Source: Escherichia coli (lineage in GTDB: Bacteria > Pseudomonadota > Gammaproteobacteria > Enterobacterales > Enterobacteriaceae). Taken from it: DNA of 64,000 bases. Under the pieces are notes generated by a model, which searched no databases, was not told where the DNA came from, and saw only the letters and a list, made by a program, of their open reading frames with translations. Position 1 is the first letter of the stretch. Each line of letters starts with the position of its first letter. Position numbers and translations under genes: made by a program. This document shows, piece by piece, positions 4,854 to 61,259 of the stretch. Location: the NCBI RefSeq assembly GCF_965641715.1, contig NZ_OZ282453.1. One strand, given 5' to 3'.

Positions 4854-6047
4854 ATGACGAAAGTGACACGCGCAGTAATTGTGGGAGGCGGGATCGGCGG
4901 TGCGGCAACTGCGCTGTCACTGGCCCGCCTGGGGATCAAAGTGGTGCTGCTGGAAAAGGCGCATGAGATCGGTGAGATTGGCGCGGGCATCCAGTTGGGG
5001 CCAAATGCGTTTTCGGCGCTGGACAGCCTCGGCGTCGGCGAAGTTGCCCGCCAGCGCGCGGTGTTTACCGATCACATTACCATGATGGATGCGGTGAACG
5101 CCGAAGAAGTGGTGTGCATTGAAACCGGGCAGGCCTTTCGTGACCATTTCGGCGGCCCTTACGCGGTGATCCACCGGGTTGATATTCACGCCTCGGTGTG
5201 GGAAGCGGTACTGACGCATCCGGACGTGGAATATCACACCTCCACCAACGTCGTGGATATTCGCGAGACGGAAGACGATGTCACCGTGTTTGACGATCGC
5301 GGCAATAGCTGGACCGGCGATATTCTGATTGGCTGTGACGGCGTGAAGTCAGTGGTGCGCCAGAGCTTATTGGGCGATGCGCCGCGTGTCACCGGACATG
5401 TTGTCTACCGTGCGGTTATCGATCGTGCCGATATGCCGGAAGATTTGCGCATTAACGCACCGGTACTGTGGGCGGGGCCGCATTGTCACTTGGTGCATTA
5501 CCCTTTGCGCGGCGGCAAGCAGTATAACCTGGTGGTAACATTCCACAGCCGCCAGCAGGAAGAGTGGGGCGTGAAGGATGGTAGTAAAGAGGAAGTGCTC
5601 TCTTACTTTGAAGGGATTCACCCCCGTCCGCGCCAGATGTTGGATAAACCGACTTCATGGCGACGCTGGTCAACCGCTGACCGTGAACCGGTGGCGAAGT
5701 GGGGAACGAAGCGCATAACGCTTGTGGGCGATTCGGCCCATCCGGTGGCGCAATATATGGCGCAGGGAGCCTGTATGGCGCTGGAAGATGCAGTAACGCT
5801 GGGTAAGGCGCTGGCGCAGTGTGAGGGTGATGCGGCGCAAGCCTTTGCGCTGTATGAGTCGGTACGAATTCCGCGCACCGCGCGCATCGTCTGGTCGACC
5901 CGTGAAATGGGGCGGGTTTACCACGCCGCAGGGGTAGAACGCCAGGTACGTAATCTGCTGTGGAAAGGGAAATCGCAGGCAGAATTTTATCGCGGCATGG
6001 AGTGGTTGTACGGCTGGAAAGAAGATAACTGTTTGCAACCACGCTGA
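4854..6047 (+). CDS. 3-hydroxybenzoate 6-hydroxylase (FAD-dependent monooxygenase)
   Basis: 397 aa; N-terminal FAD fingerprint VIVGGGIGGAATALSLARLG; DG and GD FAD motifs (GCDGVKS, LVGDSAHP). Confidence 0.85.
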   Translation: MTKVTRAVIVGGGIGGAATALSLARLGIKVVLLEKAHEIGEIGAGIQLGPNAFSALDSLGVGEVARQRAVFTDHITMMDAVNAEEVVCIETGQAFRDHFGGPYAVIHRVDIHASVWEAVLTHPDVEYHTSTNVVDIRETEDDVTVFDDRGNSWTGDILIGCDGVKSVVRQSLLGDAPRVTGHVVYRAVIDRADMPEDLRINAPVLWAGPHCHLVHYPLRGGKQYNLVVTFHSRQQEEWGVKDGSKEEVLSYFEGIHPRPRQMLDKPTSWRRWSTADREPVAKWGTKRITLVGDSAHPVAQYMAQGACMALEDAVTLGKALAQCEGDAAQAFALYESVRIPRTARIVWSTREMGRVYHAAGVERQVRNLLWKGKSQAEFYRGMEWLYGWKEDNCLQPR

Positions 6048-55567: not shown

Positions 55568-56364
55568 AACGAATTAACGCTCTGACGATTGCCGGTACTG
55601 ATCCGAGTGGTGGTGCGGGGATTCAGGCCGATCTTAAAACCTTCTCGGCACTTGGCGCTTATGGTTGCTCAGTTATTACTGCTCTGGTGGCGCAAAACAC
55701 CCGTGGCGTACAGTCGGTGTATCGCATTGAGCCTGATTTTGTCGCTGCCCAGCTCGATTCGGTGTTCAGCGATGTGCGAATCGACACCACTAAAATCGGT
55801 ATGTTGGCGGAAACCGATATTGTTGAAGCGGTGGCAGAACGGTTGCAACGTTATCAGATCCAAAACGTGGTACTCGACACCGTTATGCTGGCAAAAAGCG
55901 GCGACCCACTGCTTTCACCTTCGGCGGTTGCTACGCTGCGCAGTCGATTATTGCCACAGGTTTCATTAATAACGCCAAACTTGCCCGAAGCTGCTGCCTT
56001 GCTCGACGCGCCACACGCGCGCACCGAACAGGAAATGCTGGAACAAGGGCGATCGCTGTTGGCGATGGGCTGTGGCGCAGTGCTAATGAAAGGTGGTCAT
56101 CTGGATGATGAGCAAAGCCCGGACTGGCTGTTTACCCGCGAGGGTGAACAACGGTTTACCGCACCGCGCATTATGACCAAAAACACCCACGGCACTGGTT
56201 GTACACTCTCTGCGGCGTTGGCTGCACTACGCCCGCGCCATACAAACTGGGCTGACACCGTACAGGAGGCAAAAAGCTGGCTTTCATCGGCGTTAGCACA
56301 GGCCGACACGCTGGAAGTTGGTCACGGTATTGGTCCGGTTCACCACTTCCACGCCTGGTGGTGA
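55564..56364 (+). CDS. thiD: hydroxymethylpyrimidine/phosphomethylpyrimidine kinase
   Basis: 266 aa; ATGA overlap with thiM. Confidence 0.93.
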
Positions 56365-56428
56365 GCACCGTACTATAGCTGCTTTGGTTATTGTCAGCCT
56401 TTGGCACTGACATTCAGGGATGAAACCA

Positions 56429-57247
56429 ATGCAGCTAAGCATTACCAGTCGAAAAAAACTCACCGCTCTATTATGCGCTCTTGGGCTAATTTCCATCGTT
56501 GCAATTTATCCGCGTCAGACGGTGAATTTTTTCTATTCGACAGCAGTTCAGATTACAGACTACATCCACTTCTACGGTTATCGCCCGGTTAAATCTTTCG
56601 CTATTCGCATTCCTGCCAGTTACACCATTCACGGAATAGATGTTTCGCGCTGGCAGGAGCGGATCGACTGGCAGCGGGTGGCAAAAATGCGCGACAACGG
56701 TATCCGCTTACAGTTTGCTTTTATTAAGGCGACGGAAGGCGAAAAGCTGGTGGACCCGTATTTTTCGCGTAACTGGCAACTAAGCCGCGAAAATGGCCTG
56801 CTGCGCGGGGCGTATCATTATTTCTCCCCGTCGGTAGCAGCGCCGGTTCAGGCGCGATTATTTCTGCAAACGGTGGATTTCTCACAAGGCGATTTCCCTG
56901 CCGTGCTGGACGTAGAAGAACGGGGAAAATTATCGGCAAAAGAATTACGCAAGCGGGTAAGTCAGTGGCTAAAAATGGTCGAAAAAAGTACGGGAAAAAA
57001 GCCGGTTATTTACTCAGGAGCCGTTTTTTATCACACCAATCTGGCGGGCTATTTCAATGAATATCCGTGGTGGGTGGCTCACTACTATCAACGTCGTCCG
57101 GACAATGACGGCATGGCCTGGCGCTTCTGGCAGCATTCCGACCGTGGACAGGTAGATGGCATCAATGGTCCGGTGGATTTTAATGTATTTAATGGCACGG
57201 TGGAGGAGTTGCAGGCATTCGTTGATGGGATTAAAGAAACGCCTTAA
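56429..57247 (+). CDS. yegX: GH25 lysozyme-like glycoside hydrolase YegX
   Basis: 272 aa from MQLSITSRKK with N-terminal membrane anchor (ORF-track start 56420 has no RBS spacing). Confidence 0.85.
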   Translation: MQLSITSRKKLTALLCALGLISIVAIYPRQTVNFFYSTAVQITDYIHFYGYRPVKSFAIRIPASYTIHGIDVSRWQERIDWQRVAKMRDNGIRLQFAFIKATEGEKLVDPYFSRNWQLSRENGLLRGAYHYFSPSVAAPVQARLFLQTVDFSQGDFPAVLDVEERGKLSAKELRKRVSQWLKMVEKSTGKKPVIYSGAVFYHTNLAGYFNEYPWWVAHYYQRRPDNDGMAWRFWQHSDRGQVDGINGPVDFNVFNGTVEELQAFVDGIKETP

Positions 57248-57298
57248 ATAAGAAGCAGTGATATACTCCCACCAGACTCCCTGGCAGGAAAAAGACAA

Positions 57299-58045
57299 AT
57301 GGAACAAGCGCATACCCAGCTGATTGCCCAACTGAACGAGCGTATTTTAGCGGCGGATAACACGCCGCTTTATATTAAGTTTGCCGAAACGGTAAAAAAT
57401 GCCGTGCGCAGCGGGGTGCTGGAGCATGGCAATATTTTGCCCGGTGAGCGTGATTTAAGTCAGTTAACCGGCGTTTCGCGCATTACGGTGCGCAAGGCGA
57501 TGCAGGCGCTGGAAGAAGAGGGCGTGGTGACGCGTTCGCGTGGTTACGGCACGCAGATCAACAACATCTTCGAATACTCGTTGAAAGAAGCGCGAGGTTT
57601 TTCTCAGCAGGTGGTATTGCGCGGGAAAAAGCCCGATACGCTATGGGTTAACAAGCGTGTCGTGAAATGTCCCGAAGAAGTCGCGCAGCAGCTGGCGGTC
57701 GAAGCGGGAAGTGATGTCTTTTTGCTTAAGCGTATTCGCTATGTCGATGAAGAAGCGGTATCGATTGAGGAATCGTGGGTTCCGGCGCATTTAATTCATG
57801 ATGTTGATGCCATCGGAATTTCTCTTTATGACTATTTCCGCAGCCAGCACATTTACCCACAACGTACACGTTCCCGCGTTAGCGCCCGGATGCCAGATGC
57901 CGAGTTTCAGTCACATATTCAGTTAGATAGCAAAATACCGGTGCTGGTGATCAAGCAAGTGGCGCTTGACCAACAGCAACGGCCTATTGAATACAGCATT
58001 AGCCACTGTCGCAGCGATCTATACGTTTTTGTTTGCGAGGAGTAG
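57299..58045 (+). CDS. yegW: GntR/HutC-family transcriptional regulator YegW
   Basis: N-terminal GntR wHTH and UTRA effector domain; 248 aa. Confidence 0.9.
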   Translation: MEQAHTQLIAQLNERILAADNTPLYIKFAETVKNAVRSGVLEHGNILPGERDLSQLTGVSRITVRKAMQALEEEGVVTRSRGYGTQINNIFEYSLKEARGFSQQVVLRGKKPDTLWVNKRVVKCPEEVAQQLAVEAGSDVFLLKRIRYVDEEAVSIEESWVPAHLIHDVDAIGISLYDYFRSQHIYPQRTRSRVSARMPDAEFQSHIQLDSKIPVLVIKQVALDQQQRPIEYSISHCRSDLYVFVCEE

Positions 58046-58984
58046 TTCCTCGCGCGTTGGCGCACAATCACCGCCCCGATGCCCGACAACCCACGACGCC
58101 ACTGCATTGCCCAGTAATACGGCATCCGCCAGTGGCAGACCAGAGGCCAGCCCGGCAAGTACGCCACCGGCATGACTGTCGCCCGCCCCAATGGTGTCGA
58201 CAACTTGCGTTGGAAATGCCGGAATGCAGCCAGAAGCGTCGTTGCTGAAATACCATGCGCCTTCTTTATCGAGACGAACGATCAACGGCGCGGCAAATTT
58301 CTCCTGCCATTGTTTGCCAAGTGTTGTTATCTCTGCGGATAAAGCAAAACGTTCGGCGGCAATCTCAGCCTCTTGACGATTGAGTGACACTAAAGGTCGA
58401 CAGGCCATGATCCGCGCCAGTAATGCATCCGGGATATCGCCAATACGTGGGCCAAAATCGATAAACGGCGTCACGTCTTGCAGCTTTTCCAGCCATTCCA
58501 CTAATAATTCGCCGCAGGGCGAGGCCATTTGATAACCGGAAAAATAGAGCAGGCTGCCAGGCGCAACGGTTAATCGCGCCAGACACTGGCGATTCCACTG
58601 ATTTTCCACACCGCTGAATGACATAAAAGTGCGTTCGCCATCCGGCTCAACCAGCGCCAGACACCAGCCGTTATCACCTTCGGCGTTATCGATCAGGCTG
58701 ATTAAGCCCTCTTTTGCCATCCGGTTGCGAATAATCTCCGCCCACACGCCCTGACCGAGCGGCAAGGCGTTACCCGCTTCGATGCCGAGGCGTTTTAACG
58801 CCACGGCAATATTCAGGGCGCAGCCGCCAACGTTAACGCTCTGCTGTTTCAGTTCGATATCGCACCCACGCCAGGGGAGGGCATAAGCGTCGGCGATCAC
58901 GTCAATGACCGCCGCGCCGACGACCATCACCGGCTGACGCGTGGTTAATTCAGGCAGCAGCGTGTGTAATCGAGCGCCGCTCAT
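58019..58984 (-). CDS. yegV: PfkB-family sugar/nucleoside kinase YegV
   Basis: 321 aa; ribokinase-like motifs (DTIGAGDSHAGGVLAG). Confidence 0.9.
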   Translation of the reverse strand: MSGARLHTLLPELTTRQPVMVVGAAVIDVIADAYALPWRGCDIELKQQSVNVGGCALNIAVALKRLGIEAGNALPLGQGVWAEIIRNRMAKEGLISLIDNAEGDNGWCLALVEPDGERTFMSFSGVENQWNRQCLARLTVAPGSLLYFSGYQMASPCGELLVEWLEKLQDVTPFIDFGPRIGDIPDALLARIMACRPLVSLNRQEAEIAAERFALSAEITTLGKQWQEKFAAPLIVRLDKEGAWYFSNDASGCIPAFPTQVVDTIGAGDSHAGGVLAGLASGLPLADAVLLGNAVASWVVGHRGGDCAPTREELLLANKNV

Positions 58985-59985
58985 ACCACCTCCCGTTGTT
59001 GGCGATACTTCGCCAGCGCTGTGGCATAGCGGTTGAAATCAAGCTGATTTACCGCATCCAGTTCCGCCTTTAACGCAGGATCGATAGCGTTAACGCCATG
59101 CAACGCGCCGCAAATCGCCGTCGCCATAGCGCCGATGGTGTCTGTGTCGCCGCCAAGGTTAGCGCACAGGACGGCGCAACGGTTCGGGTCGGTTTGTGCC
59201 AGTTCAACCAGCGCAATGGCGCACGGAACGGACTCAATAGTGCTGGTACCTGCGCCAACGACCTGGTAAAGCTGTTCGCTGGCGGATTCAGTGCCGTCGG
59301 CATTGCGCACAATTTTCAGCGCAATCTCCAGACGTGCTGCCAGTGAGGCGCTGAAGGTAGTGATGCGTTTTTGCTGTGCATGTCGCGCAATTGAAGGCAG
59401 TGAATCAACAATCGCTGACCAGCTTTCTCCGTCAATGGCACGAGAAATCGCCCATGCGATGACTACCGCGCCTGCAACCGCCAGATCGGATTTATGGGTC
59501 GGGCTGGACGCCAGCGCCACATCATCAATAAAGGAATCAACATCGTGCGCCGGAAGCAAACAACCTAATGGCGAGACGCGCATCGCTGCGCCGTTGGTCA
59601 CGCCGTTGTTTTCCAGTTCAGCAACGGGTTTACCGTCGCGAATGGCGTTGAGAGCAATCTTCGAGGTCGGACCTAGTACGTTTTTGTTAAAGGCGTCGAA
59701 ACGCAGCGCCCAGTCGAGAATATTACGCCCAATCAGATTCGGGTCGATCTTGCCTTCACGTTCCAGTAACGCATCCGCCAGACACAGCGCCATCGAGGTA
59801 TCGTCGGTGAATTCGGCGCGGTTAAAATAACAGGCCGCGTTATTCTCCTTTGGTCCAGGCAGAAAACGGTCAATCCAGCCAAAGTGTGCTTTAACGCGGC
59901 TGCGTGGCCAAAGCTCGGAGGGCATCCCCATCGCATCCCCTAACGCCTGCCCATAAAGAGCACCGAGAATACGTTCTGTTTTCAT
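58981..59985 (-). CDS. yegU: ADP-ribosylglycohydrolase-family protein YegU
   Basis: 334 aa; ARH fold motifs (GQALGDAMG, GGDTDTIGAMA); ATGA overlap with yegV. Confidence 0.9.
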   Translation of the reverse strand: MKTERILGALYGQALGDAMGMPSELWPRSRVKAHFGWIDRFLPGPKENNAACYFNRAEFTDDTSMALCLADALLEREGKIDPNLIGRNILDWALRFDAFNKNVLGPTSKIALNAIRDGKPVAELENNGVTNGAAMRVSPLGCLLPAHDVDSFIDDVALASSPTHKSDLAVAGAVVIAWAISRAIDGESWSAIVDSLPSIARHAQQKRITTFSASLAARLEIALKIVRNADGTESASEQLYQVVGAGTSTIESVPCAIALVELAQTDPNRCAVLCANLGGDTDTIGAMATAICGALHGVNAIDPALKAELDAVNQLDFNRYATALAKYRQQREVV

Positions 59986-61259
59986 TTAACTTCCCCTTGT
60001 GTCAACGCAATATCGCGATCATCGACCTTGATAGCCGTAATTTCGTTGTCGGATTCGCGGAAAAAAATCATGAACAGCACGGCGATAATGGCAATCATCA
60101 CCGCGCCAAAAGTCCACATCCCGGACCAGTTGAAAGTCAGTCCGTTTACCGGTTCCTGATAAGCGAACATCTTTTCCATCATCACACCGCCAAGACGATA
60201 GCCGAGCAAACTGCCGAAGCCCTGGCAGCAGAGCGTGATCAGCCCCTGCGCGGCGGTACGCATATGCACGGGGGCTTTTTTATCGACATAGATGTAAGCG
60301 GTAACGTAGTAAAAATCGTAACTTACGCCGTGAAGCAAAATACCGAGGAACAGTAACGCGTAGGTGAAATATTCATCCGCACTACCGTAAATAAAGAAGC
60401 CATAGCGGATCGCAGCGGTGATTAGACCAAGCAATAATACCTTTTTGATACCAAAGCGTTTAGTGAAAAACGGCAATGCCAGCATAAAGAAGATTTCAGA
60501 GAACTGGCCGAGCGTCATCCAGCCGGTGGCGTTTTTCATGCCAACTTCGGTCAGATAACCGTTGGCAAAGATGTAATAGAACGCCAGTGGCATCGCAAAC
60601 AGGAATGAACAGAAGAAAAAGACGAGGAAGTTTTTATCGCGCAGCAGGATCAGCGCATCCAGGCCGAGCATGACTTTAATGTCCATTTTGCCGGTGCTTT
60701 TTGGTGGCGTGTCGGGCAGGAAAAACGCAAACACACCGAGCAGAGCAGAACTTCCGGCGGTAATCAGCAGCGGGATGTTAGTCGGTGAGATATCGGCATA
60801 CCCCAGCATTTGCGGCAAGAAACCACATGCCAGACCGGAGGCAATCCAGCCGATAGTGCCCATCACACGAATGCGCGGGAAATCACGCTCAACATCCGGC
60901 ACGTTGGCAAAAGCGATGCTGTTAGTCAGCGCAATGGTCGGCATATAGGTTAGCGAGTAGGCCAGCAGTAACGGGAAGAACCCGGCAAAAGTGGTCTGTT
61001 GCGCGGCGAAATACATCAGCACCGCACCAGCGAACATCAATACCGCCAGCACTTTCTGCGCCGAGAAAAAGCGGTCAGTGATGGAGCCAACCAGAATTGG
61101 CGACAGGATCGCCGCAATGGCTGTGCAGGCATACGACCAGCCAATTTCTCCGGCACTAAAACCGCTTTTACTTAACCACAACCACAATGGCACAAACCAC
61201 GCGCCCCAGATAAACCATTCAACAAACATCATGAACGACAGCTTTGCTGTTGTTTTCAT
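59982..61259 (-). CDS. yegT: MFS nucleoside transporter (NupG/XapB family) YegT
   Basis: 425 aa polytopic MFS protein; ATGA overlap with yegU. Confidence 0.9.
   Translation of the reverse strand: MKTTAKLSFMMFVEWFIWGAWFVPLWLWLSKSGFSAGEIGWSYACTAIAAILSPILVGSITDRFFSAQKVLAVLMFAGAVLMYFAAQQTTFAGFFPLLLAYSLTYMPTIALTNSIAFANVPDVERDFPRIRVMGTIGWIASGLACGFLPQMLGYADISPTNIPLLITAGSSALLGVFAFFLPDTPPKSTGKMDIKVMLGLDALILLRDKNFLVFFFCSFLFAMPLAFYYIFANGYLTEVGMKNATGWMTLGQFSEIFFMLALPFFTKRFGIKKVLLLGLITAAIRYGFFIYGSADEYFTYALLFLGILLHGVSYDFYYVTAYIYVDKKAPVHMRTAAQGLITLCCQGFGSLLGYRLGGVMMEKMFAYQEPVNGLTFNWSGMWTFGAVMIAIIAVLFMIFFRESDNEITAIKVDDRDIALTQGEVK

Follow-up and report, generated by a model that had tools for sequence, protein, structure and literature searches.

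Fifty-eight overlaps between convergent genes have been reported in Escherichia coli, and in 19 of these 58 the rho-independent terminator of one gene lies within the coding sequence of its partner (Lillo & Krakauer 2007, PMC2174442). The phase in which the codons of both genes coincide accounts for 33% of the convergent overlaps of at least 5 nt, and mutation of a stop codon has been proposed as the common origin of convergent overlaps (PMC2174442). Given that E. coli has 58 of these pairs, a convergent overlap of nine codons is unremarkable in itself. A related arrangement is the convergent excludon, in which neighbouring transcripts have complementary 3' ends and expression is mutually exclusive, through interference or RNase III. 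In most convergent excludons a predicted terminator is found inside the transcription unit of the neighbour, and the authors of ExcludonFinder read a terminator inside the partner as a sign of functional relevance (PMC12288877). The pair 'yegV-yegW' is among the 165 convergent excludons of that study, seen in at least 50% of 58 MG1655 transcriptomes (PMC12288877, Table 1).

The product of yegW, GgaR, has been characterised as a single-target repressor of the yegTUV operon, with ADP-glucose as its effector (PMC10819704). The same study places ggaR downstream of yegTUV on the reverse strand, leaving the overlap and termination undiscussed, and reports a single yegTUV mRNA of ~3.3 kb on a Northern blot of a ggaR deletion strain. 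[quoted passage not shown]

In the window, that is, the whole 64-kb stretch of E. coli DNA analysed here, the local gene order is rcnA, rcnR, thiM, thiD, yegX and yegW (+ strand), then yegV, yegU and yegT (- strand), then fbaB, and the locus is found in 5424 of the 5426 complete E. coli genomes. The features of the junction and of the operon are as follows.

57299..58045, + strand: yegW (ggaR), GntR/HutC-family repressor of yegTUV, 248 aa (ORF; Pfam GntR at residues 29-87 and UTRA at residues 108-242)
58019..58984, - strand: yegV, PfkB-family sugar kinase and last gene of yegTUV, 321 aa (ORF; Pfam PfkB at residues 19-309; RefSeq)
58981..61259, - strand: yegU (ADP-ribosylglycohydrolase family) and yegT (nucleoside:H+ symporter family), the upstream genes of the operon (ORFs, RefSeq, Pfam)
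58019..58045, both strands: tail-to-tail overlap of yegW (codons 241-248 and stop) and yegV (codons 314-321 and stop)
58043..58045, + strand: yegW stop codon TAG, the reverse complement of which is the yegV Leu314 codon CTA
58019..58021, - strand: yegV stop codon TAG, the reverse complement of which is the yegW Leu241 codon CTA

According to the ORF list of the window, the coding sequences of yegW and yegV share exactly 27 bp on opposite strands, which agrees with the extent given in the preliminary description; the same overlap is carried by the MG1655 RefSeq annotation, where yegV occupies 2181096..2182061 and yegW/GgaR 2182035..2182781. Codon boundaries coincide, so that the overlap sequence CTATACGTTTTTGTTTGCGAGGAGTAG reads LYVFVCEE* in the yegW frame, while its reverse complement reads LLLANKNV* in the yegV frame. 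The shared stretch falls in the short C-terminal tails of both proteins; in Pfam, UTRA extends to residue 242 in YegW (248 aa) and PfkB to residue 309 in YegV (321 aa). The pair thus resembles the convergent overlapping pairs in phase 123:321 of PMC2174442, since the ORFs, the Pfam domains, the RefSeq ends and homology to the last residues all point to two bona fide protein-coding genes on opposite strands with shared 3' ends. It differs from typical convergent pairs in that it joins a repressor to the operon that it represses, and in that the overlap is exactly 27 bp across several Enterobacterales families. The regulatory relationship that the preliminary description held to be probable is borne out by the literature, where GgaR represses yegTUV (PMC10819704). 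The RefSeq product name of yegW is 'DNA-binding transcriptional regulator GgaR', and the architecture of YegW, with GntR and UTRA domains in Pfam, matches that of a GntR/HutC regulator beside its target operon, binding and repression being taken here from PMC10819704.

The conservation of this junction was assessed in a scan of one genome per species, which returned 80 loci with a YegW relative; the genera extend from Escherichia as far as Pectobacterium, Cedecea and Leminorella. When frames were extended to the first stop, the overlap was exactly 27 bp in 75 of the 78 Enterobacterales species loci holding both genes, and it is kept even though the identity of YegV drops to 62-70% among these loci. 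The four-gene cassette lies between thiD and fbaB in most Enterobacteriaceae, with different flanks in Pectobacterium and Leminorella. The 27-bp arrangement is kept to the base in nearly all Enterobacteriaceae and also in the copies examined from Pectobacterium, Leminorella and Aeromonas jandaei. With regard to the neighbouring yegX (56420-57247), which encodes a GH25 lysozyme-family protein, the gene is found between thiD and yegW only in the Escherichia loci (L003-L005), and no yegX match was seen at this position in the other Enterobacteriaceae loci compared (L007-L081).

An alignment across the junction of 76 sequences, comprising the window and the 75 loci with the 27-bp overlap, shows how the two frames constrain each other, in a pattern that is clearly not random. 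Codon 241 of yegW is CTA or TTA in all 76 sequences, and these two codons make up ~20% of the Leu codons in this window; the yegW stop, in turn, is only TAG or TAA across the species with the 27-bp overlap. The YegW tail CRSDLYVFVCEE is nearly invariant. The YegV tail follows the pattern LLLA[NHD][KE][NDH][VI], with changes only at the first positions of yegV codons, where yegW has its third codon positions, and all of these substitutions are synonymous in yegW. Double coding alone is enough to explain the exact conservation of the overlap length.

These data also bear on the possibility that the overlap is an annotation artefact, produced by a wrongly called 3' end in either gene. Nothing was found in favour of this possibility, which can be rejected as having next to no probability. 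The stops are fixed by the reading frames, with the same ends in RefSeq MG1655, and tblastn matches extend to YegW residue 248 and to YegV residues 319-321 in nearly all two-gene loci. Furthermore, a restriction of the stop-complementary codons to CTA and TTA in 76 of 76 sequences is expected only if both stops are used. The suggestion that another stop or start assignment might remove the overlap does not hold either, as homology reaches the last residue in both proteins and the choice of start is irrelevant to an overlap between 3' ends. The yegW-yegV overlap is real, old and structurally frozen, and it joins a repressor gene to the gene that closes its target operon. Its presence in orthologous pairs speaks against a mutation peculiar to one strain.

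A few members of the Enterobacteriaceae and several more distant cassettes depart from the common junction, or share it in an unusual setting.

Citrobacter amalonaticus S646 (L022), 5748-5830: genes separated by a partial tandem duplication of the yegW 3' end
Citrobacter sedlakii (L015), 5748-5816: genes separated by a 69-bp insertion with hairpins; new YegV tail
Yokenella (L063), near 5725: a 1-bp deletion in TTTGTTTGC shifts both tails, or an assembly error
Aeromonas jandaei (L085), IS110-flanked: 27-bp overlap
Pantoea dispersa (L082): 14-bp overlap
Providencia (L083): 32-bp gap with an A6-hairpin-T6 terminator-like hairpin
L088: 32-bp gap with an AT-rich hairpin
Yersinia intermedia (L084): 67-bp gap with a hairpin without U-tract
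L089: 242-bp gap
Budviciaceae genome (L087): longer gap

The convergent gene order is retained in every one of the more distant cassettes, while the junction varies. Two loci hold yegW without its partner operon. In Salmonella enterica subsp. arizonae (L026) yegW is intact and yegTUV gives no match, leaving an orphan single-target regulator, past the stop of which a sequence like the antisense of the yegV 3' end can still be seen. In Pragia fontium (L086) yegW stands alone and is followed by a hairpin of the form AAGCCCC...GGGGCTT. The cassette of Y. intermedia adjoins a phage-type integrase and that of A. jandaei lies between IS110-family transposase genes; these flanks suggest that the regulator and the operon have moved horizontally as one unit, yegW-yegVUT.

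The lineages without the 27-bp overlap also bear on how the overlap arose. Residue 241 of YegW is Met (ATG) in six of these seven lineages, the frame of the Budviciaceae genome not covering this residue, and in the same six lineages YegW ends in [S/G]DMYVFVSEE, with the variants DMYIFVSEE in L089 and DMYVFIAE in Pantoea. Likewise, the YegV tail after GGDCAP has 12 residues in Providencia, Yersinia and L088, the same as in E. coli. Since both proteins have equal lengths in overlapping and non-overlapping lineages, simple loss of a stop codon appears unlikely as the origin of the overlap. Unlike the stop-mutation origin put forward in PMC2174442, a deletion or fusion seems to fit the protein lengths of yegW-yegV better, and we infer that the overlap arose in one of these ways.

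Overlapping genes leave no space for a terminator between them, and the statement in the preliminary description that no terminator separates the two genes is in this sense trivially true; it also stands insofar as no intrinsic terminator was found for yegW. What it misses is a hairpin followed by a U-tract in the yegV sense, located inside yegW at 57982..57929.

57982..57938, - strand: 45-nt hairpin in the yegV sense, starting 37 nt past the yegV stop, within yegW codons 214-228 (PVLVIKQVALDQQQR)
57929..57937, - strand: U-tract UAUUUUGCU, directly after the hairpin, within yegW codons 211-213 (S-K-I); MG1655 about 2182143-2182151, + strand

Together, these two elements span yegW codons 211-228, 37-90 nt past the yegV stop. 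The hairpin, detected in a free-energy scan, has the form CCGTTGCTGTTGGTCAAGCG-CCACT-TGCTTGATCACCAGCACCGG, with 19 pairs, two 1x1 mismatches and a dG of -24.8 kcal/mol. With the tract TATTTTGCT, it ranks first of 26 hairpin and T-tract matches in the 128 kb of strand scanned (the 64-kb window, both strands), and a 102-nt fold around it has a z of -3.07. The sequence thus presents the layout of an intrinsic terminator, i.e. a stable, G+C-containing hairpin followed by a U-rich tract downstream of the yegV stop. Scanning 57000-59200 for a terminator consensus gave no match at the junction; this negative reflects a limit of the pattern, since the free-energy scan later found the embedded hairpin. 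No known RNA family was detected by Rfam in 56000-60500 at E <= 1.

As in other intrinsic terminators, a G+C-rich stem next to a U-rich tract lies a short distance past the last stop of the operon. Unlike the usual ones, the candidate is embedded in the translated region of a convergent gene, and its stem is unusually long, at 19 pairs interrupted by the two mismatches. In the related cassettes of Providencia and L088, a hairpin flanked by A and T runs occupies the corresponding position in the gap. The tract UAUUUUGCU of the E. coli candidate is interrupted and present on one strand only, so that this candidate, unlike the bidirectional terminators found between convergent genes, could not act in both directions.

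Evidence that the hairpin is more than a by-product of the encoded peptide was sought by synonymous recoding, a test used in place of covariation, which is too weak here and confounded by coding. The helix covaries only slightly: across 79 sequences, 90% of the cells are paired, and only eight double-change cells are found, in four pairs, five of them in a single pair (19/53, G-C to U-A), as in the Pectobacterium rows. By contrast with these weak signals, 3000 synonymous recodings of PVLVIKQVALDQQQR in E. coli gave -9.7 +/- 3.1 kcal/mol and none of them reached the observed hairpin energy. None of 3000 recodings reached the native energy either in any of five further sequences, from two Enterobacter, a Pectobacterium, a Citrobacter and an unclassified Enterobacteriaceae MAG (L056). 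A few did so in Cedecea (1/3000), Mangrovibacter (13/3000) and Aeromonas (6/2000), while 14 control windows along yegW were unremarkable in the recoding test. The hairpin would therefore seem, on the strength of the recoding test, to be under selection beyond the needs of coding and to be kept by codon choice.

The structure is associated with the overlap. Folding energies at the hairpin site are -20 kcal/mol or lower in 63 of 79 sequences, and degraded versions are seen in some genera with the 27-bp overlap, such as Kluyvera (-10 to -11 kcal/mol). The U-tract is stronger in Enterobacter/Lelliottia, weak in Citrobacter (CACUUUGCU) and absent in Raoultella (GAUGGCGCU) and Trabulsiella, with the hairpin being retained in Citrobacter and Raoultella. 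Where the 27-bp overlap is missing, in seven lineages, the corresponding codons fold at -3 to -11 kcal/mol, within the recoding distribution, and no significant hairpin was found at these codons in Providencia, L088, Yersinia, L089, Budviciaceae, Pragia and Pantoea. In Providencia, L088 and the orphan yegW of Pragia, a hairpin with T or A runs is found directly past the yegW stop instead. The association between hairpin and overlap probably represents a single evolutionary event.

It could be argued that selection has kept the hairpin for a role in the yegW mRNA or in the DNA, as a 3' stabiliser, a processing site or an element that pauses translation near the YegW C-terminus, and that it does not terminate yegTUV. 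On the + strand, the reverse complement likewise folds into a stable hairpin (mean -21.1 kcal/mol), several genera retain the hairpin with a poor U-tract, and covariation cannot distinguish between the strands. However, the yegV-sense fold is the more stable one in 53 of 69 distinct sequences, with a mean of -23.9 kcal/mol against the -21.1 kcal/mol of the yegW sense, and the G-U pairs 13/59, 26/46 and 33/39 become C-A mismatches on the opposite strand. Moreover, the T-run is found on the yegV-sense side only, where its 6 T of 9 are the most that the SKI peptide permits in E. coli (P about 0.05); a ribosome terminating at the yegV stop would leave the hairpin free, as it begins 37 nt further on; and no comparable hairpin is found where the 27-bp overlap is missing, despite the presence of yegW there. 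We regard a role on the yegW side as distinctly unlikely on this evidence.

Two further hairpins in the window can be mentioned alongside the scans. The first one, at 57400-57440 (yegW codons 34-45), forms on both strands, with -19.6 kcal/mol on the + strand, followed by ATATTTTGC, and -14.1 kcal/mol on the - strand in the window-wide scan, or -14.9 kcal/mol when refolded in codon alignment, followed by TTTTTTACC; its recoding tests gave 5/2000 and 12/2000. The second one, of 50 nt at 2198-2247, has a stable fold on either strand (-24.4 and -22.9 kcal/mol), each with a T-containing tail after it, and takes ranks 2 and 3 window-wide.

Returning to the candidate terminator of yegTUV, published transcript ends offer little guidance: no yegV/yegW 3'-end entry is present in the Term-seq supplements of Adams 2021 and TERMITe 2025, a negative of limited weight because yegTUV is repressed in standard media. 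The sole published yegTUV Northern was obtained with a ggaR deletion strain that, by the Keio deletion design, presumably lacks the hairpin, so that the 3.3-kb band is no test of the terminator.

With regard to yegW itself, the U-tract of the embedded hairpin is present on one strand only, and the site would consequently not be active on yegW transcripts. Past the yegW stop, neither the consensus scan nor the free-energy scan found a hairpin and U-tract within 500 nt. This region holds instead the following feature.

58046..58143, + strand: C-rich, G-poor tract, candidate Rho loading region in the yegW-sense RNA, antisense of the 3' part of yegV

Its content of C is 0.41-0.42 and that of G 0.22, with 15-16 YC dimers per 78 nt, a composition that also follows from the Gly-rich yegV coding strand. 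Judging from base composition only, yegW transcripts most likely end by Rho-dependent termination in this C-rich antisense of yegV. Further along the same strand, ~2.2 kb past the yegW stop and antisense inside yegT, a hairpin AGCCCCTGCGCGGCGGTACGCATATGCACGGGGGCT (60241-60285, -20.3 kcal/mol) is followed by TTTTTATCG and is more stable than 1984 of 2000 synonymous yegT recodings. This hairpin may serve to catch antisense read-through as a backstop, or may be a chance match selected by the scan.

Taken together, the reading that we favour, and that we hold to be reasonably probable, is that the two genes overlap and produce transcripts with complementary 3' ends, with yegTUV being ended by the predicted intrinsic terminator within yegW and yegW likely by Rho. 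With no intergenic space left, the yegTUV transcript would run into the yegW coding sequence and end at the intrinsic terminator there, which would be maintained by codon choice in yegW. The yegTUV mRNA would then end near 57930 and carry ~115 nt complementary to the 3' end of the yegW mRNA. Owing to its one-sided U-tract, the embedded terminator would not end yegW transcripts, and these, lacking an intrinsic terminator of their own, would end via Rho in antisense yegV. The pair would thus have obligatorily complementary 3' ends, matching the published excludon listing.

The junction sequence makes transcript overlap unavoidable if both genes are transcribed, and the antisense RNA anticipated in the preliminary description is in line with the presence of yegV-yegW in the published list of convergent excludons (PMC12288877). 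That description had envisaged read-through; the embedded site would instead stop most yegTUV transcripts after ~115 nt of antisense, so that the read-through would not be open-ended. Like other excludons, yegV and yegW have convergent transcripts with complementary 3' ends, but here the coding sequences themselves overlap, and not just the UTRs.

The question arises of whether this arrangement is a selected regulatory device. ADP-glucose would inactivate GgaR and turn yegTUV on, whereupon polymerase collisions and RNase III attack on the duplex of ~115 nt would lower yegW expression, resulting in positive feedback; conversely, read-through from yegW would damp basal yegTUV expression. Such a role would be in keeping with the place of the pair in the published convergent excludome (PMC12288877), with the conservation of the overlap and of the convergent order, and with the joint travel of regulator and operon despite differing flanks (Pectobacterium, Leminorella, the IS110-flanked Aeromonas and the integrase-adjacent Yersinia). 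A terminator within the partner gene would also guarantee the overlap whenever yegTUV is transcribed. Nevertheless, GgaR stays constant at 20-30 monomers per cell in conditions where the model of its authors derepresses yegTUV, which argues against a strong regulatory effect of the overlap and against the mutually exclusive expression that defines excludons. No yegV/yegW entry, and hence no dsRNA cluster for the pair, appears in the p19 dsRNA capture supplements, although the repression of yegTUV in standard media weakens this negative as well. Furthermore, the overlap is dispensable: several lineages do well with none, related cassettes have gaps of 32-242 bp, in some cases containing terminator-like hairpins, and a secondary separation of the genes has taken place in two Citrobacter species. 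Double coding suffices to account for the exact length. We therefore consider a selected regulatory role unlikely, and the antisense overlap probably has little effect on expression. Slightly less likely still is the specific proposal that the yegTUV terminator embedded in the repressor gene, yielding ~115 nt of ggaR antisense per induced transcript, would act with head-on polymerases as a positive-feedback or hysteresis element of the ADP-glucose switch.

The yegW-yegV overlap is already known in substance, and as first noted it adds nothing to the reference annotation or to the published excludon list. What is novel here is the embedded, codon-maintained terminator candidate and the family-wide conservation of the 27 bp, which are added detail of a known kind of arrangement. 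The pair offers a tidy example of convergent genes that have lost their spacer, in which either stop codon ties the other gene to a rare leucine codon and a putative terminator hairpin is written into the codons of the neighbour. Deletion of ggaR should remove the presumed terminator of the operon, which bears on the interpretation of ggaR deletion strains. In the same way, when E. coli is recoded or refactored, synonymous changes in ggaR would impair the termination of yegTUV if they fall in codons 211-228, and the stop of yegV if they fall in codon 241.
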